Shown here in pieces: positions 5,686 to 21,356 of a DNA stretch of 64,000 bases (positions are counted from its first letter, which is position 1; each line of letters begins with the position of its first letter). The notes below the pieces were generated by a model. That model saw only the letters and a program-made list of their open reading frames with translations. It was not told the origin of the DNA and did not search any database. The position numbers were made by a program, and so were the translations under genes. The stretch is from Spirochaetaceae bacterium (GTDB taxonomy: Bacteria > Spirochaetota > Spirochaetia > CADAEX01): assembly GCA_009780675.1 (NCBI GenBank), contig WQZP01000012.1, forward strand, positions 3,769-67,768, given 5' to 3'.

Positions 5686-5775
5686 TTGCGGTTTTCCCTA
5701 GAATACCTTACTTCATCAACAAGCTGTTGAATATCTTCTTCTTTAATTTTTTATATTGTTTCATTTGTCATATTG

Positions 5776-6150
5776 TCATCCAATCTCTACAACTTCACCT
5801 ATGGAAAACAACAAATTATATAATTCAATATTTTCATCAAAATCAACTAAATCAAATTCATTTTCTAAAATATTGTTTAATTTTGAGTATGTTCTTATGT
5901 AATTTTTTGGAGATAAACCCATAACTCCAATGTCAATATCTGATAATTCGGTATACTTTCCTGTTGCTAATGAACCAAAAAGGAAAATTGAAGTGCAGCC
6001 TTCTTCCTTTAAACACATAGTAGCCTTTTCAATATCCTGTCGATATTTTTCAGGAATTTCTGGTAAAGTCATAATAAATAATATATACTTATTTGTGATG
6101 GTGTCAAGTGCATTTTTCATTAATTTGGAGATTTTGGATAATTCTAGCAA
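5776..6150 (-). CDS. minimal nucleotidyltransferase (MNT), pol-beta superfamily; antitoxin-like
   Basis: IFLFGSLATGKYTELSDIDIGV contains the GS..G...D.D nucleotidyltransferase motif. Confidence 0.65.
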   Translation of the reverse strand: MLELSKISKLMKNALDTITNKYILFIMTLPEIPEKYRQDIEKATMCLKEEGCTSIFLFGSLATGKYTELSDIDIGVMGLSPKNYIRTYSKLNNILENEFDLVDFDENIELYNLLFSIGEVVEIG

Positions 6151-6387
6151 AATTTACAAAATTTTTCAGCTCAATTGCATATAACGTATTATATGCGAAC
6201 TTCGTATAATCTTCATCCGAAGATATAACGCGAAATAAAGGTTCGTGTTATATCAAAAACAAATGTAAAGGGAAAATCACACAATGTAAAGAATCTTGCA
6301 AACTTGGGCTCTGCATAATTTTTCATTTTTTTATCTTACAGCAGACCACGCGGGCTTTTGCCTACGTTACTGAGTAAGAAAAATAAA

Positions 6388-6696
6388 TTAACCTGGCGGA
6401 TTTTTAAATTTTACAGCAGGCCGTTGCAAAAATTCTAACTTGAGGGTCATATTCATGGCAGAAGCTAGCCGCTTTAATGTCTGCAAGGTGGGGTTGCCAT
6501 CGCCTGCTTCCAGTTTGCTTATATCACTTTGGGCTATACCTGTGCGTTCGGAAAGCTGCTTCTGGGTAAGTCCTGCATTTTTACGAGCATCTATAATGGC
6601 TTGGACAATCGCAAACTCTGGCTCTAATGCATCCCATTCAGCGCGAATTTCAGGGTTCTTCAATTGTTCATCAAGAAATTTTTTCCACTCGCTCAT
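6388..6696 (-). CDS. HTH XRE-family antitoxin (HigA-like)
   Basis: GLTQKQLSERTGIAQSDISKLEAG is a helix-turn-helix. Overlaps the upstream toxin gene by 4 nt. Confidence 0.7.
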   Translation of the reverse strand: MSEWKKFLDEQLKNPEIRAEWDALEPEFAIVQAIIDARKNAGLTQKQLSERTGIAQSDISKLEAGDGNPTLQTLKRLASAMNMTLKLEFLQRPAVKFKNPPG

Positions 6697-7058
6697 TTCC
6701 GACTCTCCTTTCTACTTAAATATTCTGTACGATACCTTTTTGCTCTTTCAATTTCAGATGACGGCGTCTTTTGCATTTTTTTGATAAAGCCGTGTGTTAG
6801 AATGGCTTTCCGCCCCACAATAAAGAAGTATAGAATACGGGATATATCCGCACCTACCTGCGCACGAAGCTCAAAAATACCACTATCTAGATGCTTTGAA
6901 TAAGGCTCTCTCAACTCTGAACCATTGGTTTCCAAAAAATCAACAACCCTAAGCATTTTAGCTCTCATTTTTGGAGCTAATCTCAAGATAAAGTCTTTAG
7001 CGGGTTCTGTCTCATCGGCCTTATCATAAAATTTGATTTCAAATTTTAAATCCCGCAC
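6693..7058 (-). CDS. HigB/RelE-like toxin (Gp49/DUF891-type addiction module killer)
   Basis: 121 aa. ILYFFIVGRKAILTHGFIKKMQKTPSSEIERAKRYRTEYL is typical of the HigB-like Gp49 family. Toxin-first gene order. Confidence 0.7.
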   Translation of the reverse strand: MRDLKFEIKFYDKADETEPAKDFILRLAPKMRAKMLRVVDFLETNGSELREPYSKHLDSGIFELRAQVGADISRILYFFIVGRKAILTHGFIKKMQKTPSSEIERAKRYRTEYLSRKESRK

Positions 7059-7311: not shown

Positions 7312-7433
7312 CATAATAAGTGATATCTTTGCCTACAGCCGAACCGCCCGCACTCCGCCATTCGGGTAACTGCGACACAGAAATCCATGCGCAGCGATTC
7401 CGGACATTATCTGTATTGTACGCTCCAGCTACC
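7312..7433. repeat. GC-rich LRR 3'-UTR element, copy 2, preceded by a 'cataataagtgat' remnant of the exbD-fragment junction
   Basis: Aligns with 5368-5489 and 8421-8513. Confidence 0.8.
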
Positions 7434-8315
7434 ATTTAATGTATAAGCTCCTGCTCTACGCTCTTGATAGTTATAGAATTCAACAAATTCTTGGTTGAAA
7501 GCATTATTTTCTATCTTGATGTTTGCTCCAATAATAATGCTGGTTAATGGAGGCAACCCTAAAGCTCTAAATGCATTATCCTCGATAATAGTCACGCTAT
7601 CAGGAATAACAACGCTGGTCAGTTGATTCCAACTAAATGCACCTTTTTCGATAATAGTCACGTTGTCGGGTATAATAATGCTGGTCAGTTGATTTCCAGT
7701 AAATGCATCCTCTTCGATAATAGTCACGCTGTCTGGTATAACAACACTGGTCAATCGATTATCAGCAAATGCACCAGTCCTGATAATAGTCACGTTGTCG
7801 GGTATAATAACGCTAGTCAGCCGATTAGCAGAAAATGCATACCTCCCGATAGTAGTCACGCTGCTGGGGATAACAACGCTGGCCAATCGGTTACGGCGAA
7901 ATGCCCACTTCCCGATAATAGTCACGCTGTCAGGTATAACAACACTGGTCAATCGATTATCAGCAAATGCACCATTCCCGATAATAGTCACGCTGTCTGG
8001 TATAACAACACTGGTCAATCGATTATCAGCAAATGCACCAGTCCTGATAATAGTCACGCTGTCAGGTATAACAACACTGGTCAGTCGATTACCAAAAAAT
8101 GCATCCTTCCCGATTGCAGTAACAGGCAAGTTTTGTATTTGGGGAGGAATTCGCACATCTGTATTTCTTCCATTATATTTGGTAATTTCTATTGCAGTAC
8201 CGCCCTCAATAACCCGCACAGTAAAATTTTCTTCAGGTTCAAATTGTGGCTGGGTATATGCTAAAAATGCTGTCAACAGTATCAGAATAATTCCAAAAAT
8301 AATTTTTCTGTTCAT
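7407..8315 (-). CDS. secreted leucine-rich-repeat protein; member of a tandem paralog pair
   Basis: Signal peptide MNRKIIFGIILILLTAFLAYTQ. About 9 tandem 23-aa (69-bp) repeats NRLTSVVIPDSVTIIxxxAFxx. Confidence 0.8.
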   Translation of the reverse strand: MNRKIIFGIILILLTAFLAYTQPQFEPEENFTVRVIEGGTAIEITKYNGRNTDVRIPPQIQNLPVTAIGKDAFFGNRLTSVVIPDSVTIIRTGAFADNRLTSVVIPDSVTIIGNGAFADNRLTSVVIPDSVTIIGKWAFRRNRLASVVIPSSVTTIGRYAFSANRLTSVIIPDNVTIIRTGAFADNRLTSVVIPDSVTIIEEDAFTGNQLTSIIIPDNVTIIEKGAFSWNQLTSVVIPDSVTIIEDNAFRALGLPPLTSIIIGANIKIENNAFNQEFVEFYNYQERRAGAYTLNGSWSVQYR

Positions 8316-8420: not shown

Positions 8421-8513
8421 CACCGCCCGCACTCCGCCATTCGGGTAGCTGCGGCACAGGAATCCATGCTCAGCGATTCCGGACCCTACTTAAATTGCAC
8501 GCTCCAGCTACCA
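8421..8513. repeat. GC-rich LRR 3'-UTR element, copy 3
   Basis: accgcccgcactccgccattcgggtagctgcggcacaggaatccatgctcagcgattccgga... Conserved with the copies at 5381 and 7325. Confidence 0.8.
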
Positions 8514-9517
8514 TTTAATGTGTAAGTTCCTGCTCTACGCCCCTGATAGTTATAGAATTCAACAAATCCTTGGTCGAAAGCATTATTTGCTATCTTGATG
8601 TTTGCTCCAATAATAATGCTGGTTAGTCGATTCCTACTAAATGCATTATCCTCGATAATGCTCACGCTATCTGGAATAATAACACTGGTTAGTTGATTCC
8701 AACTAAATGCACCCTCTTCGATAATAGTCACGCTATCAGAAATAATAACGCTGGTTAATTGGTTCCAAAAAAATGCATTCCTCCCAATAGTAGTCACGCT
8801 GTCAGGTATAACAACACTGCTCAGGTAATTCCAACTGAATGCATTCTCCCCGATAACAGTCACACTGTCGGGTATAACAACACTGGTCAATCGGTTAACA
8901 GAAAATGCACTATCCATGATAGTAGTCACACTGTCGGATATAATAACGCTGCTCAGGTAATTCCAACTGAATGCATTCTTCCCGATAACAGTCACGCTGT
9001 CGGGTATAACAACGCTGGTCAATCGGTTAACAAAAAATGCACTATCCCTGATAATAGTCACGCTGTCAGGTATAACAACGCTGCTCAGGTAATTCCAACT
9101 GAATGCATCCTTCCCGATAGTAGTCACGTTGTTGGGAATAACAACGCTGGTCAATCGATTACGAAGAAATGCATACCTCCCGATAATAGTCACGTTGTCG
9201 GGTATAACAACGCTGGTCAGTCGATTATCAGCAAATGCACTATCCCTGATAATAGTCACGCTATCGGGTATAACAACACTGGTCAGCCGATTACCAAAAA
9301 ATGCATCCTTCCCGATTACAGTAACAGGCAGATTTTGTATTTGGGGAGGAATTCGCACATCTGTATTTCTTCCATTATATTTGGTAACTTCTATTGCAGT
9401 ACCACCCTCAATAACCCGCACAGTAAAATTTTCCTCAGGCTCAAATTGTGATTGGGTATATGCGAAAGATGCTGTAAACAGTATCAAAATAATTCCAAAA
9501 ATAATTTTTCTGTTCAT
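8486..9517 (-). CDS. secreted leucine-rich-repeat protein; paralog of 7407-8315
   Basis: Near-identical N-terminal 90 aa and C-terminal 40 aa to the neighbour, with about 11 repeat units. The upstream region (9560-9607) also duplicates 8362-8408. Confidence 0.8.
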   Translation of the reverse strand: MNRKIIFGIILILFTASFAYTQSQFEPEENFTVRVIEGGTAIEVTKYNGRNTDVRIPPQIQNLPVTVIGKDAFFGNRLTSVVIPDSVTIIRDSAFADNRLTSVVIPDNVTIIGRYAFLRNRLTSVVIPNNVTTIGKDAFSWNYLSSVVIPDSVTIIRDSAFFVNRLTSVVIPDSVTVIGKNAFSWNYLSSVIISDSVTTIMDSAFSVNRLTSVVIPDSVTVIGENAFSWNYLSSVVIPDSVTTIGRNAFFWNQLTSVIISDSVTIIEEGAFSWNQLTSVIIPDSVSIIEDNAFSRNRLTSIIIGANIKIANNAFDQGFVEFYNYQGRRAGTYTLNGSWSVQFK

Positions 9518-9611: not shown

Positions 9612-10658
9612 TTATCTTTTTGGCAGCAGTTGCGAAAGGTAAGTGGATAAAATATCTTTGTATTCTTTTTCTATTTTTTGCTCTGCTGATACAAACACAC
9701 GGTTTTCTGCTCCTGCAACTGTGGGATGCCCTTCTCGAATATTAAAAGTGAATGGCAATAATACCTCTCGCGTGACAGTATCAGTAAGGTTTGCGCTTAA
9801 TTCCATAAGAATAAATCTGTGCGGATTATCAGGAAAATCAACAGGCGAAAGCCATACATTTACTCGAAGCGCATAACGCGAATTACTTCCTCCACTTCTA
9901 AATCCAAAATCAGTAAAAGTTTTCGCGAAAGCATCCTGAATTCTTCCGGCTCTATCGTTGTTAACAACTATATTGACCGGAATGGCTCTGGTTATGTTTC
10001 GCGCTTCCAGCCGGTATTCGTCGCCTCTTCTAACCCCTGCGGGTGTTCTTGCGCCCAGCATATTCAATAAATTAGCATAAGTGATATTTATATCTGCCAC
10101 TGTTGCGGCGAATTGAAATCTGGAAAAACCTTCCAGAGAATTTCTTTCAGCCTGACTCATGGTAGTAAGATTTCTAATCATTTCCAGATTGGCTAATATC
10201 ATATCTGTGTACAAGCGAATGGTTTTTGCCCTTTCCATGACTGCAACAGCATAAAAAATATTGTGCCGTGTGTCCTGCCATACATCTTTTATTTCCGCTC
10301 CAATAAGATTATCCATCGAAACTGATGTTCTTATTGTATTTTGCATGGCGATATTATCGACCCAGCCTATGGTAATGCCATCTCTTACAGCTTCAAGATA
10401 TGTATTTACTATTATTTGATCTGCCTGTATGGATTGACCAAAAAAAGCAGCCAGATTTGCAATAGCGTTTCTTTCTGCCATTTCGCGGTCTGTAGCATGG
10501 CCCACTGCAGCAATGAATTGCGATCTGCTGTAAACAGAATCAACAGAATCGACCCATGCAGGTTTTCCGCTGTTGCCAGGCGAACTTGCGCAGGAGAAAA
10601 ACAACAGCATCAGCGGAAAAAAGAAAAAATTATTCGCTAACTTGAAGAGGTCTTTCAT
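9612..10658 (-). CDS. lipoprotein with an N-terminal LPP20-like domain
   Basis: Probable start is the ATG at 10658 (MKDLFKLANNFFFFPLMLLFFSCASS lipobox). KPAWVDSVDSVYSRSQFIAAVGHATDREMAERNAIANLAAFFGQSI fits the LPP20/FlgP-type fold. Confidence 0.5.
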   Translation of the reverse strand: MKDLFKLANNFFFFPLMLLFFSCASSPGNSGKPAWVDSVDSVYSRSQFIAAVGHATDREMAERNAIANLAAFFGQSIQADQIIVNTYLEAVRDGITIGWVDNIAMQNTIRTSVSMDNLIGAEIKDVWQDTRHNIFYAVAVMERAKTIRLYTDMILANLEMIRNLTTMSQAERNSLEGFSRFQFAATVADINITYANLLNMLGARTPAGVRRGDEYRLEARNITRAIPVNIVVNNDRAGRIQDAFAKTFTDFGFRSGGSNSRYALRVNVWLSPVDFPDNPHRFILMELSANLTDTVTREVLLPFTFNIREGHPTVAGAENRVFVSAEQKIEKEYKDILSTYLSQLLPKR

Positions 10659-11214
10659 TTCTTGCAAGTTGGGCATCAAGCATCTGTAAAGCTTGTTGCG
10701 CTTTGAACTGGGCAAAAGCAGCTTCCTGATTATTAAGAATACTTGCTACTTCCCTTCTGGCATCAGCTTTTCTGTACTCAACAAGAAACCACCAGTATCC
10801 ATCCGGAGCTTCCCATCGCCTGATGGGGTGTGCGCCAGTAAGATTTATACTGCTAACCTGGCGGCTTACATCTTCCTGCAAGGAAGCGTTAGCTTGATTG
10901 TTTACATTGCCTGCATCAAGATTGTAGTCTGTGAACATAGCCTGAACTAAAGTATCAAGCTGACGCGTAATAGCGGTTCTTCCCCTGGCTTCCGCTGTTG
11001 TCATGGACATGGAACGGGAAGATTGTTTTGCGGTTCCAATACCCCAAATAACATCATTTGGCGGCAAATCATTTAACCATTCCGGCGTGTTAGCCATTCT
11101 GCCTGTGGCAGGGGCAGACCCGCACCCTGCGACAAAAACTACTATGAATACCAGTATTATTGCCGTTACTCCAATTGTAAACAAATTTTTCTGTTTCATT
11201 TTTTTCTCCTTCAA
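10630..11214 (-). CDS. LPP20-like lipoprotein
   Basis: Lipobox VFVAGCGS. PEWLNDLPPNDVIWGIGTAKQSSRSMSMTTAEARGRTAITRQLDTLV matches the LPP20 domain pattern. Confidence 0.55.
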   Translation of the reverse strand: MKEKKMKQKNLFTIGVTAIILVFIVVFVAGCGSAPATGRMANTPEWLNDLPPNDVIWGIGTAKQSSRSMSMTTAEARGRTAITRQLDTLVQAMFTDYNLDAGNVNNQANASLQEDVSRQVSSINLTGAHPIRRWEAPDGYWWFLVEYRKADARREVASILNNQEAAFAQFKAQQALQMLDAQLARNERPLQVSE

Positions 11215-11308
11215 AATTTATTTTGCACACATTTTTATCATGTGCGAGAATGACCACTTTAGTTCTAAAATTTTGCCGCTATGCGTGTACACGAATCTTT
11301 CTCGTTTT

Positions 11309-12295
11309 TTATATTTTTTCAAGACTTCTCGAAAAACACCAACCACGCTTTTCGTCTTTTGTAATAATTTCAAACCATGTATTAGTAAGAGTTATATCAT
11401 CTCCTGTGCTTATGTGTTGCACTTCTGCCCCATTAGGAATTACTGCAAAATGATCAATTGATACATTAGGTTCTTTTCTTAACTCCATCCCATAAGATCC
11501 AGTGGGGAACGATCTAACACGATGTGTGGGAATGAATTCTTTATAAATATTTATACCAGAAAATAATTTTAACATCCGCCTTCTATCACCCATAGCAATT
11601 ATTCCTATTTTTTCAAGATCATCTTCTGTCAATTCGGAAATTATTTCTAAATCAGTCAATTTATTTTTTTCAAAAATATCGATATATTCATCCAGATTAT
11701 TTTCCCGGAGTATATCATTCCATTTTTTTTCGACTCCACATATTTGTGAAATTTGATTTGAAGGCGGTAAAATATTTTTCTTATTATTCCATAAAAAATC
11801 CAATGTACTCATAATACTTTGAATTTCAACCTGTAGTTCTTTAAAGCGATTAGAATTTATTTTTATAGAGCTACTCAGCAACGGTACAGAAATAAAGGGA
11901 TTATTAAAATCATTCATTTTAAATATTAAGTCAATTTCAGATATTTTCTCTGGCGCATCAGCACCTATTAATGCGCCAGAAGCTGCACCAAGTCCGCCAA
12001 GCATTGTTGTCCTGCCAGAAGCAGATGATGCATAACTTCCGGTTGCGCCTGCTCCTAATAAGCCGCCAAGTAATGCGCCACCTAAGCCACCCAGCAGAGC
12101 TCCTGCCCCAATGCTTCCTGCTGTATTTTTCTTGGTGTCACCGGTAGTAATTTTATATTCTGTTACCTCATTAATATTAAATATTTTGACTGAATATGAA
12201 TATGGATTTATACCAATGTAGCCATTCTCATTTATTGCAACAGGTATCTCTATAGCTTGTTGAAATATCTTTGCTCCTTTTAATTTATCATCCAT
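11309..12295 (-). CDS. glycine-zipper + SAM-like + SH3b multidomain protein
   Basis: Gly-zipper stretch GAGALLGGLGGALLGGLLGAGATG...GGLGAASGALIG. SAM-like helix bundle DEYIDIFEKNKLTDLEIISELTEDDLEKIGIIAMGDRRRMLKLF. C-terminal SH3b-like beta domain. No signal peptide. Confidence 0.45.
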   Translation of the reverse strand: MDDKLKGAKIFQQAIEIPVAINENGYIGINPYSYSVKIFNINEVTEYKITTGDTKKNTAGSIGAGALLGGLGGALLGGLLGAGATGSYASSASGRTTMLGGLGAASGALIGADAPEKISEIDLIFKMNDFNNPFISVPLLSSSIKINSNRFKELQVEIQSIMSTLDFLWNNKKNILPPSNQISQICGVEKKWNDILRENNLDEYIDIFEKNKLTDLEIISELTEDDLEKIGIIAMGDRRRMLKLFSGINIYKEFIPTHRVRSFPTGSYGMELRKEPNVSIDHFAVIPNGAEVQHISTGDDITLTNTWFEIITKDEKRGWCFSRSLEKI

Positions 12296-12384
12296 AATTA
12301 TCCTCTAACTTATTTGCATTTTTCCTGGCATTTTGTTTTTTGATTTTCATTGCTATTTAATTTTACCATTTTGTTGCTTCCTTA

Positions 12385-14466
12385 CTATGTCAACAACTTA
12401 ATACCGATACTAATGGCATGGGCTCTTATTCTCTCGCTCTTAAATAATTTATATTTGTACTCATTCCATCTCCACCCATTCCATTCATACCCACTAGACA
12501 CTTCATTCCAATTCATCTCATACCACGTTAGTCTGTATTTAAAAAAAAATGGTTGAAATGATAAGCCGAAGTTTAATGAAGGAGTTGCCCAATCTGTAAT
12601 AATGCCCTTCATACCTGGTGGGAACATTCCCATTTCAAGTGCTAGATTAGAAAACACTTTTAGATTACTGCCAAGGGGATATACCAAGCCAATATTTGGA
12701 GAAATAATAAAAGTCATGTTTGAAGAATAACTTCCTCCATCTTCCGATTCATACTCATACTCTCCAAAAAACCCTAACCTCAAATCTATTCCAGATGTAA
12801 TATAGGGAATTAATGTAAAATAATAATTAACTTCAGCGCCAATAATACCAGGAGCATAATCTGACCATTGATAATAACCAGAAAGGGCAATAAAATTTTT
12901 ACTAGCATTACGTCTTTTTTCTGCTGCCTTCCTTTCTCTCTGCTGTTGAAGCTCCCTCGCTCGTTGTTCTTGAGCTCGTTGCTCTTGAGCCCGCTGTTCT
13001 TGAGCTCGTTGTTCCGCGACCTCACGTTCACGTATTCTTTTCTCGAAATCCCCTGTTTCGATCCTCATATAACCAGTAGCAGCTAGATTATGCGAAGAAA
13101 CCCCGTTAACCGCAACGATCATAATAGTAAGTGTTGGCGTTAAAATTTCTGGAGTTGCATTTACATTGTTAAACATAACTATCCCTTCGACACTAGATGG
13201 TGGTGTTACAATTCTGTCCCCTGCATTAAAATTGATTGGGTCAGTGTTCAAAGTAATACTGCTTCTGCCAATAGTTCTCCCATTTTCATTTATAAGCGCA
13301 ACATCTACTTTGTAACTAAAAGAACGCCTGCCGCCAAATACTGCAGTTCCTCGTGCTTCTCGTGAATTATCCATAACAAATGGCCAGCCAGAGAAGCCCC
13401 ATATTTCGCGCCTGCCAGTTCTTTCAAGTCCTTCCAGCAATGCATTGAGCGCGTCAAAACCAGCCTTTGATGAATCAAGAGCTACCCTCATTCCCAAAGT
13501 TGCGGTACGCCTGGCAAAATCAGTTTCACCAATTTGAATAAGATTTGGGTCAAAGACTATCTCAAAGGGTGGGTGGTCACTAAAAAAACGAGTGGTTTCT
13601 CTAAATGCTTCAAGCCATCTATCGCGCGCTTGAATGTCGTTTAAAATTCTCTGGCTAATCGTTCCATCAGTTATGGAGGCGGAAAGTGTATTGAGCCGCG
13701 ATAATGCTTCGAGTTGTGATGGGTCAAAGGAAGCAGCCTGAGCAAAATTTAATAAAGCTTCTACTTCTGACCCGCCAGCTTGTGCTGTGATTCCTCTTGC
13801 AAGTCCTGCTTGCGCCTGTACTGTTGAGATATTCCCTGCCAACAACGATTGTCTTCCCGCATCTGTTAACTGGACTCCCATTTGGGCAAGAAGTTCCGCA
13901 GTTGCTTCATTTAAAAGCGTTGCTCGCCCTTCTAGCTGCGCGAGAGTCCCTTCCTTCATAAAAGTTGCCCTGCGCACCCCTGTACTTGATTCAGTAATAG
14001 CGAGTTGTAGAGCAAACCGATTTCCAGGCAGTCTTTGAATTGTTCCAAAAAGATTAAACTGGGTATTGGTTAAATTACCAATGCGCACAAAATCTTGATC
14101 TGAAAATCTACCGCTTGCAGCAATATTCTGTTCAGCAATTATTCTATCTAAATGTTGACGGTCTATTAAGTTGATGGCGGAAAACCTGTTAAAGTTGTTA
14201 TTTAACATCCCTTGAATATATAATGGTAAATGAGCTGGTACATCACCTTGAATTTCAGGAGCAACAATAGCAAGGCGTATATTACTGCCGCCATTACCTC
14301 TCCACATTGGGCCAGTAGCTGCTTCCAGTCGGCCAATAGCCCCACGAGCGGTTATTCCCAGTTCATCAGTAGCAGGAGAAGTTCCACGTACTTCGCCAGT
14401 TGACGAACAAGCGATTAAAATCACGACTGCTAAAAGCAGTAAAACTATGTGCTTAAGGGTTTTCAA
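12385..14466 (-). CDS. large lipoprotein: N-terminal LpoB/CsgG/TolB-N-like (LppaM-clan) domain, charged (AQEQR)n linker, C-terminal outer-membrane beta-barrel-like domain
   Basis: Lipobox LIACSS. NIRLAIVAPEIQGDVPAHLPLYIQGMLNNNFNRFSAINLIDRQHLDRIIAEQNIAASGRF..FGTIQRL fits the LpoB/CsgG-type fold. The last ~180 aa alternate aromatic/hydrophobic residues, consistent with a beta-barrel. Confidence 0.5.
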   Translation of the reverse strand: MKTLKHIVLLLLAVVILIACSSTGEVRGTSPATDELGITARGAIGRLEAATGPMWRGNGGSNIRLAIVAPEIQGDVPAHLPLYIQGMLNNNFNRFSAINLIDRQHLDRIIAEQNIAASGRFSDQDFVRIGNLTNTQFNLFGTIQRLPGNRFALQLAITESSTGVRRATFMKEGTLAQLEGRATLLNEATAELLAQMGVQLTDAGRQSLLAGNISTVQAQAGLARGITAQAGGSEVEALLNFAQAASFDPSQLEALSRLNTLSASITDGTISQRILNDIQARDRWLEAFRETTRFFSDHPPFEIVFDPNLIQIGETDFARRTATLGMRVALDSSKAGFDALNALLEGLERTGRREIWGFSGWPFVMDNSREARGTAVFGGRRSFSYKVDVALINENGRTIGRSSITLNTDPINFNAGDRIVTPPSSVEGIVMFNNVNATPEILTPTLTIMIVAVNGVSSHNLAATGYMRIETGDFEKRIREREVAEQRAQEQRAQEQRAQEQRARELQQQRERKAAEKRRNASKNFIALSGYYQWSDYAPGIIGAEVNYYFTLIPYITSGIDLRLGFFGEYEYESEDGGSYSSNMTFIISPNIGLVYPLGSNLKVFSNLALEMGMFPPGMKGIITDWATPSLNFGLSFQPFFFKYRLTWYEMNWNEVSSGYEWNGWRWNEYKYKLFKSERIRAHAISIGIKLLT
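12957..13020. repeat. 15-bp imperfect tandem repeat (x4) inside the CDS, encoding (AQEQR)n
   Basis: tcgttgttcttgagc / tcgttgctcttgagc / ccgctgttcttgagc / tcgttgttccgcgac. Confidence 0.7.
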
Positions 14467-14484
14467 AATATGGCTCCTTAAATA

Positions 14485-14943
14485 CTATCTTCTATCCGTA
14501 CGATATAGTAAAAAATATAATTCGCCATTACTCTCACGATGAAAGTAAAATGTATAACCACGCGCACCTTGAGGTGTCTGATTTAGTATGACTTGCCATG
14601 TTTCTCCTCGTCTTATAGTTTCATTATGTAAAGCCGCTTCTGCTCTTTGAAGTAATTGCTCTTCAAGTGAATTTAAACGGTCAACTCTATACATAAAAGC
14701 ACCAGTATTGAGTATTCTTGCGATTTCATTGATACCAGACACAAAATTTGCTATTTCACTTACCCAAGTTCTATCAGTTAGCGTGGTATATCCGATCTCA
14801 ACTGATGTAACAGAGAAAGAAGCAGCTGTTTGACCCCATGCGCCAATATTAATCAGTAATAAGAGAGCCAATAAAAACATTTTTCTAATCTTATATCTCA
14901 TCATCTTTTTTCTATCCTCCCCAAAACAAAATGCTTTTTTCAT
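14485..14943 (-). CDS. small secreted hypothetical protein; first gene of the lipoprotein operon
   Basis: Signal peptide (MFLLALLLLINIGAWGQ). A 19-nt gap to the next gene. Ribosome-binding site AGAGGG upstream. Confidence 0.4.
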   Translation of the reverse strand: MKKAFCFGEDRKKMMRYKIRKMFLLALLLLINIGAWGQTAASFSVTSVEIGYTTLTDRTWVSEIANFVSGINEIARILNTGAFMYRVDRLNSLEEQLLQRAEAALHNETIRRGETWQVILNQTPQGARGYTFYFHRESNGELYFLLYRTDRR

Positions 14944-14988
14944 ATGTTCCCTCTTGAACTCGCGCCTTATAAATTATCAGGTATATAG

Positions 14989-15177
14989 TTACTCCTCATC
15001 AATTGTTTTTCTTGTTTGAATGGGGCGCAATTCTTGGGTTTTATCGCTATTTATACCCGCAGGAGATACGGTAATTACAGTCTTTTTCCCCTGCTTCTCA
15101 ATTTCGCTCACTTTAAGACCTGCTTTTTCGAGAGCTATTAGTAGGGGTTCATAAGTGTCGACGGAAGTGAATTTCAT
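14989..15177 (-). CDS. possible small protein (62 aa)
   Basis: Good ribosome-binding site (AAGGGG, 5 nt before the ATG). Non-repetitive hydrophilic sequence. Confidence 0.25.
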   Translation of the reverse strand: MKFTSVDTYEPLLIALEKAGLKVSEIEKQGKKTVITVSPAGINSDKTQELRPIQTRKTIDEE

Positions 15178-15296
15178 ATAGCCCCTTATTATTCTATAAT
15201 AGAATTATTTACCCATTATGGAATATGAACATACAAATTGTCAAGACACAATAATGAAAGATGACAATTTTTAGAGTTTATGTAATAATTTAGGAA

Positions 15297-15704
15297 ATGA
15301 AACAAACTTACGGAGAGCGTCTGGCAGCAGCTCTAAGACACAAGAACCTTAAACAAGCAGATTTGGCCAGCGAACTTAATATAGTGCAGGGTACAGTTTC
15401 AAAGATCATCAATGGTACCCAATATCTCGATTTTGATTTGGCAGTAAAGGCATGCAAAATCCTTGATATTTCTCTGGACTGGTTGGCTTATGGTGGCGAC
15501 CAAGTTGCCAAACCCAAGTTTTACCACAACCCAGAAAGACAACGGATTGAATATCTTTTGTCGATAATAAATGAAGCTGAATACCCCTTAATTATTGTAG
15601 CAATGGAGGAAATAATCGAAATCAGGCTCAAGGACGAAGCGTCAGAAAGCTCAGAAAAACCCTGCAAGCCAAACATACCAGATAATCATAAGAGAAAAAA
15701 ATAA
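15297..15704 (+). CDS. HTH XRE-family transcriptional regulator
   Basis: LKQADLASELNIVQGTVSKIINGTQ is a helix-turn-helix. Divergently transcribed from the lipoprotein operon. Confidence 0.7.
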   Translation: MKQTYGERLAAALRHKNLKQADLASELNIVQGTVSKIINGTQYLDFDLAVKACKILDISLDWLAYGGDQVAKPKFYHNPERQRIEYLLSIINEAEYPLIIVAMEEIIEIRLKDEASESSEKPCKPNIPDNHKRKK

Positions 15705-15831
15705 CCTGCACGGCTGATTGTTCCAGTCAGAGCTATGCCTTAAACTAATTTGCCCATTGCGAATTATTGTAATATTCCCACATCTAAATTATAATGCTAT
15801 AACTTTTCCCCCAATTTTCAGGAGTGTAAAA

Positions 15832-16752
15832 ATGATTGACTGGCTTCGAAAAAGCATTGCGCGAAAACCAATACTATTATTTATCTGCGGAGCGTTGGCA
15901 CTATTGCTGGCGAGTAGCTGCCGCCCTACGCCTCAGGAACCGATTGCGCCGCGCATCCCTTCAACTCTAAGAATTCTCGATGACCTGGAAGCTCAAGAAA
16001 GACTCATGCTCACTTTTGCCAAAGCACACCCAACAAAAATCTCTGGCGTGGAATTCATGGACAATGACTGGACCATGCTGGTCAATGGTGTCCGCTTTTT
16101 CTTTGCGCAAGGCAGGTTCTTGCCAGAAGAGTTACGCGACAAGTGGGAAGAATTTTACCCTTATGACTTTTACGATTATCCATGGGTTGGCACACCCAGA
16201 GAAAGGCGAGCTGCGTTTGAAAATCCTGTTCGTTCTGTTGGCTCCCCTTTTTTGTTTGACATACTCTATTTTTCATTAACAGAAGATGACAGTTGGGATA
16301 AGCAGGTAAAGTATTCTTTTCTGGGCGTTAAAATGCTAATCCATAATCATATTGAACCTTTTCTGGACCTCGTACAGGAACGTATCCGCGCTGCTGCCAA
16401 AACTGATCCATCAATAAATGAATGGATTGCTGAACTTCGAACCAGTCCGCCAAGCTTTGGCTGGAATTGGCGCAACATAGCCAGCACCAATCGCCGCAGC
16501 CTTCATTCTTACGGCATAGCTCTTGACCTGTTGCCCAAAGATATGGAGAACATTCAAACCTATTGGCAATGGGGTGTCGATGAAACAGATCTTGAAAATC
16601 TTTATATGCCGCCGGAAGCAGTTATCAGGGCTTTTGAAGCTTATGGCTTTCTTTGGGGCGGTAACTGGAGCTTGATCGATACAATGCATTTTGAATACAG
16701 ACCAGAAATATTATTGCTGAATAACTTTGTCATAGAGCATTTGAATCATTAG
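15832..16752 (+). CDS. M15-family (VanY-like) D-Ala-D-Ala/L,D-carboxypeptidase; probable lipoprotein
   Basis: Start at 15832 after AGGAG. Signal peptide/lipobox LLASSC. Zinc-binding motifs SLHSYGIALD (SxHxxGxAxD) and DTMHFEY. Confidence 0.7.
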   Translation: MIDWLRKSIARKPILLFICGALALLLASSCRPTPQEPIAPRIPSTLRILDDLEAQERLMLTFAKAHPTKISGVEFMDNDWTMLVNGVRFFFAQGRFLPEELRDKWEEFYPYDFYDYPWVGTPRERRAAFENPVRSVGSPFLFDILYFSLTEDDSWDKQVKYSFLGVKMLIHNHIEPFLDLVQERIRAAAKTDPSINEWIAELRTSPPSFGWNWRNIASTNRRSLHSYGIALDLLPKDMENIQTYWQWGVDETDLENLYMPPEAVIRAFEAYGFLWGGNWSLIDTMHFEYRPEILLLNNFVIEHLNH

Positions 16753-16819
16753 GATTGTTGCCTGATAGTGTCCGGCAGAATTACCACATGGAGAAAGAGA
16801 TGAAAAAGGTGAGCAATAG

Positions 16820-17704
16820 TTGATACATGAAATTACAATGCTGCTTGGCAGTATCTGGCTACAGTTCCAGCATATTGGGCAGTACTGGGCTTTGGGGCTT
16901 GTTGCTGGTTCCCTGGTCTCTGTTTTTCTTTCAGAAAAAGTTGCGAAAAGAATGGTTGCTCTTGCGTCTGGCAGTTTCTGGTTGCTGCCACTGTGCATAG
17001 CTGCTGCGCTTGGGATTGTTTCGCCACTCTGCATGTATGGCACTGTGCCGATCATTGCGGCATTTGGAAGAAAAGGTGTGCCGCAACATCTGCTTGCTGC
17101 TTTCATGATTAGCTCGATTTTGCTTAACCCAAATATTTTCTTTTTCACTTTTGCTCTTGGCGCTAATATTGCGCTTATGCGGCTGGCATTATGCTTTATG
17201 AGCGGGGTTCTGGCAGGCAGCCTCGTCCTTCTGTTCTTTAGGAATAAAGCATTGTTTAGCCTTGAACGCTTTGCCCAGGCAGAGTGCAAGCAGAAAAAAA
17301 CTTTTTTCCTTGACCTGTTTAAAGCTTTCAGGATTACTGCGCCCTATCTTTTAATTGGTATAACGCTTGCTGCGTGGTTTGAAAGATATGTTCCGCCAGA
17401 GCTGATCGCTGGAATGTTTGGCGCAAAGCGCGGACTTGGCGTATTGTTCGCCACAGTGATTTCAATTCCTTTGTATGTCTGCGGCGGTGGCACAATACCG
17501 CTGGTCAGGGCGTGGATGCACACAGGCATGGGCACAGGTGATGCAATGGCATTCTTGCTTGCAGGGCCAGCAGTCAAAATCAACAACCTTAGCGCTGTAA
17601 AAATGATACTTGGCGGGAAGCATTTTATGCTGTATCTTGTTTATAACATTGTGTTTGCTATCCTTGTTGGCTGGGCTATAGAATTTTTTCTGTCCAGAAT
17701 GTAG
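16820..17704 (+). CDS. polytopic membrane permease (DUF318/YraQ-like)
   Basis: 8-9 hydrophobic segments. Cys/Gly-rich loops (VCGGGTIP). Confidence 0.45.
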   Translation: MIHEITMLLGSIWLQFQHIGQYWALGLVAGSLVSVFLSEKVAKRMVALASGSFWLLPLCIAAALGIVSPLCMYGTVPIIAAFGRKGVPQHLLAAFMISSILLNPNIFFFTFALGANIALMRLALCFMSGVLAGSLVLLFFRNKALFSLERFAQAECKQKKTFFLDLFKAFRITAPYLLIGITLAAWFERYVPPELIAGMFGAKRGLGVLFATVISIPLYVCGGGTIPLVRAWMHTGMGTGDAMAFLLAGPAVKINNLSAVKMILGGKHFMLYLVYNIVFAILVGWAIEFFLSRM

Positions 17705-17725
17705 TATATAATAGAAGGAGTTGCT

Positions 17726-18991
17726 ATGAAAAATAAAAGGATAATATTAGGTATTGCTGTACTGATTTTGATTTTATTCAGCGCTGGCCTCGCGGCTCAG
17801 CAAAGAAGGGGCTCCACGCCTCCTGCTTCCACATCACCAGAAGCCCCAAGCCTAAGCGGAAATAGCCCTGCCTGGACACTTCCAGATGGTATAGTTTCCA
17901 CAGTTTTTGTAGAGGACTCAAATGGCACAGACGATGGGGTGCGAAGACTGATACGCTCGATGCAAAACCATGGGGTCAGCTTTTACAAAACTGATATGAA
18001 CACTTCCGGCTTGATTGCATCTGGCTCCGTGGTACTGCTTAAGATCAATGCTCAGTGGGATCAGCGGGGCGGCACAAACACCGACCTTCTTCGAGGTGTT
18101 ATTCAGGCGATACTTGATCATCCCAATGGCTTTGCCGGAGAAATAATAGTTGCAGACAACGGACAAGGGCAGTTCGGCAGCGCTCCTGGAGGCGGAGGCA
18201 GTCTCGACTGGCCGCGCAATAATGCTGTTGATCAAAGTCAATCCACACTTAGAGTAATCCGCTCTTTTCAGGCCATGGGACACCGTGTTACTGGCGTATT
18301 ATGGGATGAATTCACCCGAACCCAGGTACAGGAGTTCAACGCAGGGGATATGAGAAATGGCTTTGTAGTGGAAAATGAAGTGCGCCACACAGGTATCGCG
18401 GTCTCTTACCCAAAGTTCACCACTGAATTCGGAACACATGTCAGCTTTAGGGAAGGGGTATGGAATCCTGCTGCCAGAACATACAATAGTGAAATACTCA
18501 AAGTAATAAATATGCCAGTGCTTAAATCGCACAGACTTTTTCAGGTAACTGCTGCTGTCAAGAATTACATGGGTGTACCATCAGATATACTAACAAGAAA
18601 TCGCGGGCGCGCCCACAACAGCGTTGGTACCGGTGGGATGGGAACCCTTATGGTGTATACCCGCATGCCTGTTCTCAATATCACGGACATGATCTGGATA
18701 GCTCCGGACCGCGGGCCCCGTGCAGATTATAATGCTGCTGTACAAATAAACAAAATTGCAGCGTCAACCGATCCTGTGGCATTGGACTACTGGACAACCA
18801 GGCACATACTCATGCCAGAAGCAGCAAAAGTTCCTGGTGGGCGGGCGCCTGCAATGGATCCAGCAGGCACAGAGCCTGGAACCTTTGGGCATTGGTTGCG
18901 ACTCTCCATGAACGAACTTCACAGAGCAGGGATAACAGCTACCATGAATCCAGCAGAGATGCTGATCGTTCAAAATGGAACTGTGCGATAG
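17726..18991 (+). CDS. secreted DUF362-like protein
   Basis: Signal peptide. VLLKINAQWDQRGGTNTDLLRGVIQAILDHPNGFAGEIIVADNGQG resembles the DUF362 core. Confidence 0.4.
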   Translation: MKNKRIILGIAVLILILFSAGLAAQQRRGSTPPASTSPEAPSLSGNSPAWTLPDGIVSTVFVEDSNGTDDGVRRLIRSMQNHGVSFYKTDMNTSGLIASGSVVLLKINAQWDQRGGTNTDLLRGVIQAILDHPNGFAGEIIVADNGQGQFGSAPGGGGSLDWPRNNAVDQSQSTLRVIRSFQAMGHRVTGVLWDEFTRTQVQEFNAGDMRNGFVVENEVRHTGIAVSYPKFTTEFGTHVSFREGVWNPAARTYNSEILKVINMPVLKSHRLFQVTAAVKNYMGVPSDILTRNRGRAHNSVGTGGMGTLMVYTRMPVLNITDMIWIAPDRGPRADYNAAVQINKIAASTDPVALDYWTTRHILMPEAAKVPGGRAPAMDPAGTEPGTFGHWLRLSMNELHRAGITATMNPAEMLIVQNGTVR

Positions 18992-19004
18992 ACGGCAGTA
19001 GTTT

Positions 19005-21356
19005 ATGTTTCACACAAAAACTAAAACCATTATTTTTTTTCTTCTTTTTCTACTCTGTTTTTCTTCATGCGCAGAGGCTCAGGTTTTAGGACTACGCCAA
19101 CAAAGGGCAACAGAGCTGTTCAAACAGGGAGATCTGGACTTTATTATCCGGGCGCAACTGCCTGCTGATTTTTCAGGCGCTGTATCTCGGCTTCAGGAAC
19201 TTATGCGTATACACCCGGCAGCCCCATTTTACGCAGGGCTCATTGTAGGCAACATGGAGTCAGCAGAACAAAACCGGAGATTACAAATACTTCTTTTCTC
19301 CGCAGCAATAGAAAGCCCCTCTCCTCCTGTCAGAAGAGAAGCAGCGCTCAAACTTACCCGCCTTATACTGGAGTCCGAGAGACCTCGGGAAGTTCAGAGT
19401 ATCCTTAACTTTCTGGCGCCTGGAACCAGCCGCCGGGACAGGGCTATAAATGAAAGATCAGAGCGGATACTGCTTCGTGCAGCTTGTCTCTATCGTCTGG
19501 GGCGCTACAGCGAAGCGCTACAACTTCTTCCAGCAAATCCAGATGGGCAATGGGAAAAGGCTTTAGCTCTTTTCGCAACATGGAAAGCTTCCGGCGGGAA
19601 TGTTGATAAAACAAAATATCAGGAAATCATGTGCTTTCTTTTTGATCTTCCCACAGGGGATCTAAGACGCTGGGCATACGCAGAAGCGCTTTCTATTGAT
19701 GAGTTCCTTAGCCCAGAAGAACATGGAATTATTTTCAGCAGGCATTCCCCTGCAAGACACATAGTAACACTGGCTAATCTGCAGCCTGCTCTTTCAGATG
19801 GAGGGCTTCTCTTTTTTCGTTATCCAAGACTTATAGGAGATTTAACCAGAGCTTATCAGTTTACACCTCTTATGCGGGAAGAAGGGTTAACCCTTTTAGG
19901 AAATTGGGACAGGATGCTGGAATATTTTTCGCAACCCCTTGACCCCCTTGAGGCAAATAACAACTTTGAACATCCCATAGATCCAGAGCTTGAAACCTTC
20001 TTGAGAACCCTGGACAAAGAAGCCATAAACGCCCGCAGATACTTTATCCTCCACCACGCAGGGAGAATAGAACGGGCCAGAGGGCGCTTTCCAATTTCTT
20101 CGGAATATTTCATGCAGGCATTGCAGTTTGCCCCTGACACTACACAAGCAGACGCCTGCATCTGGTACATACTTACGAATACCCTAACCCATAATCCATC
20201 AAGCGCAGCAGCGATATTTATAAGCACCATCCCCAAGTGGACAGATATGTCTGTCTTTAATGGTCTCCTTGATCAATTGTCAAGATATCTGACAACCGGA
20301 CGGCACTGGAATACGTTACTGCAAGTATTTTTTGCCCTTGAAAGCAAAGTAACAAGCGGTACCCGACCTGGCGCAGCCTATGCCCAGTACGCATGGATCG
20401 TGGGCAGGGCAATACAGGAAGGCTTTCTAGTAACAGAACGAAGCGCTGAAAGTTTTTTCCGTATTGCCTTTGAGGAAGAAAGCGCTTCTTTTTATTACCG
20501 CACCATGGCTGCTCTAAAACTGGGAGAGAACCTTTCCCCCATAAACAGTAACCAGAGAACAGGGAGGCGGCCACCTCCGGCTCCTGTTCGCTCAGGAGGG
20601 GAGCTGGAATTTCTGCTGGGATTTTTTGAATACAGCGCAGCTTCATTTGCCCTGCCTTTCATACGATCTCTGGAAGGGGAACTTTCAATACCAGAACTAA
20701 GAAGATTAGCAGCAAGAATGGCAGAAGCTGAGCAATGGCAAGAATCCCTGCGTCTTGTCTCCCGTTATATGAGACGGGATGGTTTCCAAACCAGCCGGGA
20801 AGACCTTTACCTTTCCCACCCCCGCCCTTTTGTCGAGCAAATAGAAAGGCACGCCAGAAAAGTTGGTATTGGGCCTGAAATAATGTTTGCCCTTATCCGT
20901 ACTGAAAGTTTTTTTGGAGCTGATGCAGTTTCTCATGCCGGCGCAGTGGGTCTTGCACAACTCATGCCTACAACAGCCCAGGATATCGCAACCAGGATCG
21001 TCAGGGCAGGAGGTCCTGACCACCGCAGCCCCAATGGCATAAACCTTACAGACCCGGAAGTAAATATCCATCTGGGTTCATTTTACCTGCGTCACCTTAT
21101 TTACAATCAGATGGATGGAAGCCCCATGCTGGCCCTTATGGCCTATAACGGCGGCCAGGGCAGAGTGCGGCGCTGGGTTGCTGCGGACAGAGCGCGCGCA
21201 GGCGGCAGCCTTCCCAAAGACCTGTTTCTTGAAACCATCATATACCCAGAAACCAGACAATACGGCCGCCTCGTGCTTTCCGCAGCAGCAATCTACGGAT
21301 ATCTTTACTATGAAATGAGTATGGAAGAGGTAGCTGTAAATATTTTCCGGCAATGA
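19005..21356 (+). CDS. slt: soluble lytic murein transglycosylase (Slt family)
   Basis: Signal peptide. Long alpha-helical superhelical region. C-terminal SLT domain EIMFALIRTESFFGADAVSHAGAVGLAQLMPTTA. Confidence 0.75.
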   Translation: MFHTKTKTIIFFLLFLLCFSSCAEAQVLGLRQQRATELFKQGDLDFIIRAQLPADFSGAVSRLQELMRIHPAAPFYAGLIVGNMESAEQNRRLQILLFSAAIESPSPPVRREAALKLTRLILESERPREVQSILNFLAPGTSRRDRAINERSERILLRAACLYRLGRYSEALQLLPANPDGQWEKALALFATWKASGGNVDKTKYQEIMCFLFDLPTGDLRRWAYAEALSIDEFLSPEEHGIIFSRHSPARHIVTLANLQPALSDGGLLFFRYPRLIGDLTRAYQFTPLMREEGLTLLGNWDRMLEYFSQPLDPLEANNNFEHPIDPELETFLRTLDKEAINARRYFILHHAGRIERARGRFPISSEYFMQALQFAPDTTQADACIWYILTNTLTHNPSSAAAIFISTIPKWTDMSVFNGLLDQLSRYLTTGRHWNTLLQVFFALESKVTSGTRPGAAYAQYAWIVGRAIQEGFLVTERSAESFFRIAFEEESASFYYRTMAALKLGENLSPINSNQRTGRRPPPAPVRSGGELEFLLGFFEYSAASFALPFIRSLEGELSIPELRRLAARMAEAEQWQESLRLVSRYMRRDGFQTSREDLYLSHPRPFVEQIERHARKVGIGPEIMFALIRTESFFGADAVSHAGAVGLAQLMPTTAQDIATRIVRAGGPDHRSPNGINLTDPEVNIHLGSFYLRHLIYNQMDGSPMLALMAYNGGQGRVRRWVAADRARAGGSLPKDLFLETIIYPETRQYGRLVLSAAAIYGYLYYEMSMEEVAVNIFRQ

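Follow-up and report, generated by a model that had tools for sequence, protein, structure and literature searches.

An XRE-linked lipoprotein locus of a termite-gut spirochaete as a candidate paralogous copy of a three-protein envelope module of Treponema

Contig WQZP01000012.1 of the Spirochaetaceae bacterium assembly GCA_009780675.1 carries, within the 64,000-nucleotide stretch analyzed here (forward-strand positions 3,769 to 67,768; hereafter, the window), a minus-strand operon for cell-envelope lipoproteins that lies opposite an XRE-family regulator gene (window positions 9612 to 15704). Three of its products, the lipoproteins B, D, and E, represent an envelope module of three proteins that many termite-gut Treponema carry. 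At roughly even odds (a probability of about 0.5), we explain the locus as an XRE-linked, paralogous copy of this module that serves as a scaffold and into which unrelated cargo genes have been inserted. Our confidence is high for the anatomy of the locus, which comprises its gene content, the folds of its products, the size of the family, synteny and its limits, module boundaries, and base composition, and it is moderate to low for the scaffold function, with the localization, physical B-D-E interaction, oligomerization, and regulation that such a function would entail.

Results

Organization of the locus

Six minus-strand open reading frames (ORFs) follow one another from 15177 to 9612, in the order 62-aa ORF, A, B, C, D, and E. 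Together with the regulator, the locus comprises the following features.

15297..15704, plus strand: XRE-family helix-turn-helix (HTH) regulator of 135 aa (HTH_3, E 1.2e-9), divergent from the lipoprotein operon
15178..15296, no strand assigned: divergent promoter/operator region, a 119-nt spacer with a promoter-like site and palindromes
14989..15177, minus strand: 62-aa ORF, first in the transcription unit, with neither signal peptide nor family
14485..14943, minus strand: gene A, secreted protein of 152 aa, whose translation has a signal peptide without Cys or lipobox
12385..14466, minus strand: gene B, lipoprotein of 693 aa (lipobox LIAC in the translation)
11309..12295, minus strand: gene C, protein of 328 aa without signal peptide; SAM, weak SH3b, and Gly zipper
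10630..11214, minus strand: gene D, Lpp20/FlgP-like lipoprotein of 189-194 aa with a C-terminal helix (lipobox VAGC)
9612..10658, minus strand: gene E, lipoprotein of 348 aa (lipobox FFSC); the ORF extends to 10715 (367 aa)

The intergenic gaps measure 18 nt (A-B), 89 nt (B-C), and 94 nt (C-D), and D and E overlap; for E, the Met at 10658 is a likelier start than the ORF limit at 10715. A previous reading of this DNA, made by a model from the letters alone (the original prediction), had described five minus-strand genes with short gaps or overlaps, and to these, the 62-aa ORF is now added as a sixth. Its description of A as a small secreted protein agrees with the signal peptide, and that of a divergent XRE gene agrees with the HTH_3 match. 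The regulator had also been placed immediately upstream of the operon; it is indeed divergent, but the 62-aa ORF intervenes between the promoter-like site and A. B had been called GC-richer than its neighbors. Instead, GC content at third codon positions (GC3) is low in A (0.235) and C (0.22) relative to B, D, and E (0.30-0.38), and the composition outliers are the GC-poor A and C, rather than B. An identical sequence is on record as contig ERZ27257297 k141_298220 of the European Nucleotide Archive (ENA), and the NCBI entry for B, from a Spirochaetaceae metagenome-assembled genome (MAG), calls it a hypothetical protein.

Protein B joins an LpoB/TolB-N-like domain to an outer-membrane barrel

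The structure of B was examined as an AlphaFold2 (AF2) model with a mean predicted local distance difference test (pLDDT) value of 75.5, most of the barrel lying above 90. The protein divides into three parts.

13033..14466, minus strand: conserved N-module, residues 1-478, with the signal, the domains, and the junction motif GYMRIETGD
12907..13047, minus strand: linker, residues ~474-520, an (AQEQR)n charged helix/coiled coil seen in the model and in the repeat
12385..12894, minus strand: C-module, residues ~525-692, an OmpA/OmpX/Ail-like eight-stranded outer-membrane β-barrel; the exchangeable part

In the model, residues ~55-200 adopt an LpoB/TolB-N/CsgG-like α/β domain of ~145 residues, residues 200-297 are helical, and a second α/β domain spans residues 300-470. 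Residues 474-520 are modeled as a single long helix, in which the (AQEQR)n stretch is encoded by a tandem repeat of 15 nt × 3.7 at 12959-13014. The C-module has eight antiparallel strands that close into a barrel and match the OmpA/OmpX/Ail fold, as expected of an OmpA-like barrel. Lipobox, model, and structure searches thus bear out the earlier description of B as a lipoprotein with an LpoB/CsgG/TolB-N-type N-domain, an (AQEQR)n linker, and a barrel.

Structure searches place the N-domain closer to LpoB and TolB-N than to CsgG. Its match to the LpoB C-domain (4q6l; Foldseek E 2.5e-4, TM-score normalized to the target 0.57) amounts to resemblance only. Against CsgG (PF03783), B scores 15.3 bits, below the cut-off of 20.8, and the alignment covers only profile positions 43-99 of 210; the match stems from the core motif region DRxxL...E...G...IG...A.Y...G. 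Some relatives of B exceed the CsgG cut-off, with 24-39 bits over the same short stretch. B gives no LpoB match (PF13036/TIGR02722) at E<0.1 and no FlgO (PF17680) match in Pfam, and its relatives reach 20-26 bits on the LpoB equivalog model, whose cut-off is 110.55. In NCBIfam, no model rises above its cut-off for B, D, E, or their relatives. Sequence-profile searches of the PDB with B and with E found nothing, and an hhalign comparison of the B and E families aligned only their signal peptides.

The weak CsgG match raises the question of a secretion channel, to which the original prediction had likened these folds. The model of the N-domain has none of the transmembrane hairpin inserts of CsgG, and none of the genes neighboring the locus has a Pfam match to CsgE, CsgF, CsgA, or CsgB. 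With its ~145 residues, the domain is of LpoB/TolB-N size, and judging from the model, it does not appear to be a CsgG-type channel. We therefore set the channel reading aside on the grounds of domain length, partial profile coverage, and absent partner genes.

Proteins D and E resemble the Lpp20/HP1454 pair

D and E had both been predicted to be LPP20-type lipoproteins. For E, Pfam agrees (PF02169, 26.4 bits against a cut-off of 25.9); D stays below threshold (19.6 bits, E 1.3e-3), and its assignment is supported instead by a profile match to Helicobacter pylori Lpp20 (PDB 5ok8, E 7.8e-4) and by hhalign, which aligns D with the N-domain of E (E 7.5e-8). Orthologues of D that are 56-78% identical lie downstream of B-type or CsgG/LpoB-type genes in four related loci (L003, L011, L013, and L035; related loci are referred to by such numbers throughout).

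The AF2 model of E (pLDDT 77) comprises an LPP20-like domain, a helical hairpin region, and an LptE/PelC-like C-domain. Its best match is H. pylori HP1454 (4kzs; Foldseek E 3.4e-8 over 307 columns, target TM-score 0.54), for which no sequence-profile match to E is detectable. In Foldseek, the C-domain also matches LptE (about 1e-5), CC_3750, PelC, and GNA1162, and the whole chain matches FlgT (3w1e, E 3.8e-5) at the fold level only. Relatives of E number 339 in Treponema, where NCBI names them 'LPP20 family lipoprotein'. E has the HP1454/FlgT fold, D is Lpp20/FlgP-like, and the two together reproduce the Lpp20/HP1454 operon pair of H. pylori. One related but divergent locus carries a third LPP20-type lipoprotein between its D-like and E-like genes (L021 8633-9460, 275 aa, LPP20 domain C-terminal, E 1.3e-4), and the number of LPP20 paralogues therefore varies from locus to locus.

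The original prediction had asked for profile and structure searches for LppaM-clan folds across the operon; they uphold the LPP20, LpoB/CsgG/TolB-N, barrel-fusion, and SAM assignments.

XRE, B, D, and E recur together across Treponema loci

A scan of GTDB species-representative genomes with B yielded 23 distinct loci, all from termite-gut Treponema MAGs except those of T. primitia ZAS-10 and of one Fibrobacteria-binned contig. Synteny was assessed by tblastn and ORF clustering. In L003, L005, L011, L012, L013, L019, L021, L024, and L031, as well as in L036, the B-type gene is followed downstream by D and/or E, giving B-D-E linkage in about 10 related Treponema loci. A divergent XRE-like gene directly precedes the B-type gene in 13 of the 23 loci and in all nine (9/9) of those that have D/E together with upstream sequence; L034 and L036 have it as well, as does L033, a distant locus. 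Only the set of XRE, B, D, and E recurs, rather than all five operon genes. The conserved neighborhood that the original prediction anticipated hence exists for B, D, E, and XRE, and it does not extend to A, C, or the 62-aa ORF; A and C are rare, low-GC3 insertions, and the view of the five genes as one coherent system does not hold.

The Fibrobacteria-binned locus (L031; LIUH01000088.1, 'Fibrobacteria bacterium GUT31') has a B-type gene with masked runs of N, along with E-like and D-like genes, at 40-70% identity to Treponema; it is either a mis-binned Treponema contig or a case of horizontal transfer.

Viewed from the side of E, three long contigs were inspected (L034, L035, and L036). L035 holds a compact triad between GH77 and AAA/DUF2400/IMPDH housekeeping genes. 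Its first gene encodes a secreted protein of 374 aa that matches LpoB (E 1.1e-8), CsgG (3.7e-7), and FlgO (0.008) and has a C-terminal barrel-like half ending in GVGWAF, its second an LPP20 protein of 184 aa that is 56% identical to D, and its third an E-like protein of 402 aa. Aligned with the B family by hhalign, the 374-aa protein shares the CsgG/LpoB core only (E 8e-7). The design of an LpoB/CsgG-like domain plus a barrel is already present in the compact triad. L034 shows the same neighborhood in expanded form, with two HTH regulators, three CsgG/LpoB-like genes, PBECR2, two short LPP20 lipoprotein genes, and an E-like gene. In L036, the order is XRE, B with a WD40 C-terminus, DUF1643, D, and E. 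From these comparisons, the window locus is best read as a probable paralogue derived from a conserved Treponema triad, with a regulator linked to it and cargo genes added.

Two related loci lie close to flagellar genes: L036 is ~5 kb from fliK-flgD-flgE-flbD-motA (15401-19068), and the B-type locus of L033 is 3 kb from fliS (13027-13473). This closeness may be due to chance.

A constant N-module carries exchangeable C-termini

At 90% clustering, the relatives of B exceed 222, and its named relatives and the genome-scan MAGs are termite-gut Treponema or Spirochaetaceae. Their identity to B, 65-74%, is confined to residues 1 to ~478. A phmmer search of 1.84 billion representatives with residues 1-478 retrieved 1224 proteins at E<=1e-3, 532 of them at E<=1e-30. 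The window locus, which had been taken for a singular system, belongs as one of many paralogous copies to a large Treponema family that is modular.

Homology breaks off sharply at residue ~475-478, in protein and DNA alike. The family junction motif, GYM[RK]IxTGDLE, is followed by an EQR-rich helix of variable length. Among 120 listed relatives, 75 have the motif, and the following C-termini were counted in those 75.

TPR: 18
WD40: 14
At least four unrelated small barrels: 11, 9, 7, and singletons
FGE-sulfatase: 3
Single hydrophobic (transmembrane) helix: ~8
OmpA_C (Pfam annotation): 1

Across the family, there are more than 10 kinds of C-module. More distant members (~35% identical) end in BspA-type LRR_5, FGE-sulfatase, Fib_succ_major, or RicinB domains; several of them exceed the CsgG gathering score, and some are named 'TolB-like protein' by JGI. 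The 34%-identical member in L033 has the divergent XRE gene upstream and no LPP20 genes nearby. Adjacent pairs of B-family ORFs, or B-type genes split by a frameshift or stop, occur in L010 (363-3453), L025 (4469-7118), L028 (9941-12159), and L029 (9898-11147), which suggests tandem duplication and pseudogenization within the family.

This arrangement recalls Rhs/CdiA-type loci, in that a conserved N-region and a junction motif are followed by unrelated C-modules and variable downstream genes. It differs from them in that the C-modules are anchors or binding repeats rather than toxins, the downstream genes are unpaired with the C-module type, and secretion-system genes are absent.

Genes between B and D belong to a variable segment

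DNA homology between loci ends at window positions 13033-13046 and resumes at ~11090, inside D; the variable segment therefore consists of the C-module of B together with the cargo genes. The genes between B and D/E are locus-specific and lack signal peptides. In the related loci, they include the following.

L011: TIR_2 (E 2.7e-14), ThsB-like in PADLOC, without ThsA
L013 and L036: DUF1643
L021: HNH-like
L024: FkbM methyltransferase
L034: PBECR2
Several small genes encoding unknowns

In L003, an RNase_T gene lies just past D. The type of cassette does not correlate with the type of C-module. Inspection by eye of the B-C and C-D intergenic regions revealed no shared repeat and no attC-like site. 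PD-(D/E)XK 'transposase' genes (PDDEXK_2/YhgA-like) flank XRE-B loci in L003 (6334-7341) and L015 (13181-14107), and they may contribute to rearrangements of the variable segment.

C had been described as a Gly-zipper, SAM, and SH3b protein. Its SAM domain is firm (residues 196-243; SAM_1 E 2e-10 and 41.2 bits against a cut-off of 23, SAM_2 38.3 bits against 20.5); SH3_3 is subthreshold (residues 272-325, E 1.4e-3), and the Gly zipper (residues ~60-110) is visible by eye and in a weak YiaD Gly-zipper match. Residues 91-179 match phrog_888 (E 5.7e-7), a PHROG of unknown function. Among 5.8 billion clusters, C has only six relatives. Its Gly-zipper N-half is joined to other C-halves in L012 and in the proteins P0243-P0245, and it occurs in one of the ~10 syntenic loci, there with a different C-half. 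We therefore rejected C as a component of the system. PF27000 is the precomputed label of the alternative C-half (P0243, P0244; L012 4274-5182), a label whose name and function were not readable.

For A, no family was found in Pfam, NCBIfam, PADLOC, or PHROGs, and no homologue occurs in any of the 36 fetched loci or in viral contigs; its role as a secreted cargo was rejected on the latter ground. A phage origin of A and C was likewise discarded, given that viral contigs hold no relatives and that only the N-half of C has a PHROG match, of unknown function. The 62-aa ORF has no tblastn match in related loci and no match in Pfam, PHROGs, or PADLOC, and it is called as a gene on both public contigs. 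None of A to E has a PADLOC match; XRE alone does, to generic HTH models. Judged by sequence comparison, A, C, and the 62-aa ORF appear to be rare insertions or passengers, not components.

The divergent promoter region has candidate operators

The strongest σ70-like site of the region, TTGACA-18-CATAAT on the minus strand at 15244-15215 (11 of 12 matches), sits inside the spacer shared by the XRE gene and the 62-aa ORF. A perfect 15-bp palindrome, ATTCTATAATAGAAT, occupies 15191-15205, just 5′ of the 62-aa ORF, and a 12-nt inverted repeat (15232-15243/15262-15273) overlaps the -35 boxes of both divergent promoters. The palindrome and the inverted repeat are candidate XRE operators. The XRE protein resembles regulators of PADLOC candidate systems (PDC-M69A, E 3.9e-9).

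On the other side of the spacer, a gene for an M15_4 peptidase lipoprotein (15718-16752, plus strand) starts 13 nt after the XRE gene and is followed by an ArsP-type permease and DUF362; 15297-18991 (plus strand) is apparently one unit. Two related loci, L011 (31-387) and L033 (10275-10757), likewise have M15-like genes close to their B-type genes.

Comparison with characterized systems

In H. pylori, HP1454 and HP1456 (Lpp20) share an operon, and both bind the motor accessories FlgP and FapH (PMC11756786). That lpp20 operon (HP1454, HP1456/Lpp20, and HP1457) resembles the present locus as a set of co-operonic envelope proteins with LPP20 folds, HP1454 having the multi-domain fold of E and Lpp20 being the protein matched by the D profile. 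It differs in that the Treponema pair is linked to an LpoB/CsgG-like protein, often barrel-fused, and to XRE, and in that the Treponema pair is multiplied into paralogous, cargo-bearing loci, none of which is reported for H. pylori (PMC11756786).

The Vibrio H-ring consists of concentric rings, with the C26 ring of FlgT encircled by C58 rings of the lipoproteins FlgP and FlgO that are tethered to the outer membrane (bioRxiv 10.64898/2025.12.02.691832). FlgO, FlgP, and FlgT offer the same three fold types as the Treponema set, namely a compact LpoB/CsgG-clan lipoprotein, an LPP20 lipoprotein, and a three-domain TolB-N-like protein, and the FlgO match of the 374-aa L035 protein in Pfam is weak (16.4 bits against 22.6, E 0.008). 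However, the similarity is at the fold level only, the Treponema proteins have many paralogues with interchangeable C-modules, and B, which has additional domains, a coiled coil, and a barrel, exceeds FlgO three- to fourfold in size. Moreover, the flanks of the window locus are without flagellar Pfam domains, and the L035 triad lies among housekeeping genes. In spirochaetes, the flagella stay within the periplasm and never pass through the outer membrane, and the L-ring setting in which the H-ring occurs is therefore missing.

The two-layer α/β folds of LpoB, TolB-N, PelC, LptE, and GNA1162 are found in the N-domain of B and the C-domain of E; LpoB, PelC, and LptE are, like B and E, lipid-anchored, and the WD40 paralogues of B imitate the domain order of TolB. 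In contrast to LpoB, TolB, PelC, and LptE, whose partners are PBP1B, Pal, PelB, and LptD, the Treponema loci are not linked to any of these partner genes. CsgG shares its core motif region with B, and relatives of B pass its gathering score; nevertheless, the domain in B is too short, and the barrel of B is a separate OmpA-like C-domain, not the oligomeric CsgG barrel.

The combination of folds, which had been thought unprecedented, accordingly matches the Lpp20/HP1454 pair and the FlgO/FlgP/FlgT triad. As a system, the locus does appear uncharacterized, as predicted: NCBIfam offers no model above cut-off, and no description of it was found in the literature searched.

Discussion

A membrane-tethered scaffold with a modular adaptor

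We propose that the lipid anchors of B, D, and E hold them at the outer membrane, on its periplasmic side, and that they oligomerize into a membrane-tethered scaffold in the form of a ring, disk, or lattice. The analogy behind this proposal is that every solved assembly with these folds is a ring or plug associated with the outer membrane, as in the H-ring, CsgG, dodecameric PelC, and LptE within LptD. B would be a modular adaptor whose 478-residue N-module docks to the scaffold and whose rigid charged helix acts as a spacer that, were it helical throughout, would measure about 7 nm (47 residues × 0.15 nm). The exchangeable C-module would then set the site or target of attachment, either the membrane (barrel or transmembrane helix) or a partner (TPR, WD40, LRR, lectin, or OmpA_C); in the window, the barrel of B would provide a second, integral outer-membrane anchor. 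Repression of the divergent promoter by the XRE protein, acting on the palindromes of 15191-15273, is probable, and A, C, and the 62-aa ORF may be passengers of a recombination-prone variable segment.

Several observations weigh against this proposal. The B-D-E interaction and the ring rest on analogy, and a location on the periplasmic face of the outer membrane is an assumption for Treponema lipoproteins. At the sequence level, the window B falls below membership in CsgG, LpoB, and FlgO, and its second α/β domain (300-470) is without an assigned fold. About eight of the 23 B-type loci (L007, L014, L018, L022, L023, L025, L026, and L028) have neither XRE nor D/E nearby, so B-type proteins can stand alone. 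C-modules of the LRR, ricin lectin, and Fib_succ_major types are typical of surface adhesins, which suits surface display by the family no less than a scaffold in the periplasm. Finally, deletion of hp1456, whose product Lpp20 is the nearest relative of D with a solved structure, gave no motility, motor, or barrier phenotype (PMC11756786), and function is therefore not transferable from HP1454/Lpp20.

Alternative explanations

If B were a surface-display adhesin, its N-module would be a stalk or anchor that presents C-modules to protist hosts, lignocellulose, or microbes, with D and E as chaperone- or anchor-type helpers. The LRR_5, RicinB, Fib_succ_major, and FGE-sulfatase C-termini of divergent B members fit this idea, as do the two BspA-LRR secreted proteins encoded directly downstream in the window, and the diversification from one locus to the next at a sharp junction suggests that variability of binding specificity is selected for. 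We nevertheless consider this serious rival unlikely: in the window, the C-module forms a membrane barrel, and in ~8 paralogues it is a single transmembrane helix, both of which are anchors rather than ligand binders; TPR, WD40, and OmpA_C are typical of periplasmic scaffolds (TolB, BamB/D, LpoA, and Pal); and the LppaM-clan folds in solved assemblies face the periplasm. B might instead regulate peptidoglycan (PG) enzymes or tether the envelope in the manner of LpoB, NlpI, or TolB-Pal, spanning the periplasm on its coiled coil to reach PG synthases, hydrolases, or the wall. Its N-domain matches the LpoB C-domain and TolB-N, the Pfam LpoB model and TIGR02722 both give scores for its relatives, the WD40 variants are built like TolB and OmpA_C occurs in one paralogue, the XRE gene is apparently cotranscribed with the gene for an M15_4 lipoprotein of the D,D-carboxypeptidase type and M15-like genes lie near B in L011 and L033, and the variable-length linkers resemble periplasmic rulers. 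Yet the LpoB equivalog scores are far under the cut-off (20-26 against 110 bits), M15 adjacency is limited to three loci with inconsistent positions, a gene for a penicillin-binding protein (PBP) is linked in no locus, and the LPP20 partners are given no role, which makes this explanation quite improbable.

The cassettes between B and D (TIR_2, HNH-like, PBECR2, and DUF1643) and the RNase_T gene past D in L003 could also be effectors of an envelope-linked conflict or defense island, in which the C-module of B is a sensor and XRE controls the variable effectors (TIR, HNH, PBECR2, and Gly-zipper-SAM). The regulator resembles PDC-M69A, toxin-antitoxin modules flank the locus, and WD40, TPR, and FGE are classic sensor modules in NTPase conflict systems. 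We regard this possibility with strong doubt, since A to E have no PADLOC match, no NTPase or transducer joins the periplasmic and cytoplasmic parts, cassette type is uncorrelated with C-module, the compact triad of L035 is without such genes, and a permissive insertion hotspot explains the pattern equally. An accessory of the flagellar motor, analogous to the H-ring or collar and placed around periplasmic flagellar motors, would account for the fold triad, which equals FlgO/FlgP/FlgT, for the binding of HP1454 and Lpp20 to FlgP and FapH (PMC11756786), and for the positions of L036 and L033. It is very unlikely, given genes that lie outside flagellar operons with no flagellar genes near the locus in the window, many paralogues with swapped C-modules (more than one in at least some genomes), and flagella for which an L-ring context is absent. 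Least credible of all is secretion of small or amyloid cargo through a channel of the CsgG type, for which the 152-aa protein A would be the candidate substrate; the weak CsgG match of B, the above-threshold CsgG matches of relatives, and a small secreted protein encoded just upstream of B speak for it, but the match is limited to less than a third of the profile, the two transmembrane hairpin inserts and CsgE/F/A/B-like genes are absent, A is absent from every related locus, and LpoB and TolB-N are better matches for B.

A bolder extension of the scaffold proposal, against which we judge the odds to be long, is that loci of the order XRE, B, variable segment, D, and E form a diversifying envelope system. 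Swaps of the C-module at the GYM[RK]IxTGDLE junction would carry the adjacent cargo (TIR, HNH, PBECR2, or Gly-zipper-SAM) along, and an outer-membrane-tethered FlgO/P/T-like scaffold of lipoproteins would be coupled, in treponemes of the termite gut, to conflict or host-interaction functions. If true, the system would be a nonflagellar descendant of H-ring-type proteins, repurposed as a modular platform.

Implications

The component folds and the type of combination are known already from the Lpp20/HP1454 pair and the FlgO/P/T triad. New are the nonflagellar setting in a spirochaete, the addition of a barrel and further domains to the LpoB/CsgG-like member, a very large family whose C-modules vary beyond a sharp junction, and the links to XRE and to a cargo segment. 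The fold triad of the H-ring exists in spirochaetes as a conserved nonflagellar gene set, one member of which has been turned into a highly modular adaptor. It offers a concrete candidate for an outer-membrane-associated scaffold in spirochaetes, bears on how the Treponema outer membrane is organized, tethered, and decorated, and provides a comparative handle on the role of Lpp20/HP1454-type proteins, which are major antigens in Helicobacter. The locus also carries a caution: unrelated cargo interrupts envelope operons in these genomes, and a run of adjacent genes is not necessarily one system.

Neighboring genes in the window

Downstream of the operon, three minus-strand genes encode secreted proteins of the LRR_5 BspA type (7407-8315, 8486-9517, and 2430-3848). 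The two that adjoin E are tandem paralogues with 67% identity, and the long antisense ORFs over the LRR_5 genes are repeat artifacts. A toxin-antitoxin/defense-type cluster at 4274-7058, read from precomputed Pfam annotation of the identical ENA contig, comprises the following genes and marks this flank as a variable genome region.

6693-7058 and 6388-6696: Gp49/HigB-like gene plus HTH gene
5776-6150: Pol-beta nucleotidyltransferase
~4978-5241: PhdYeFM antitoxin
4274-4696: PHD-like gene

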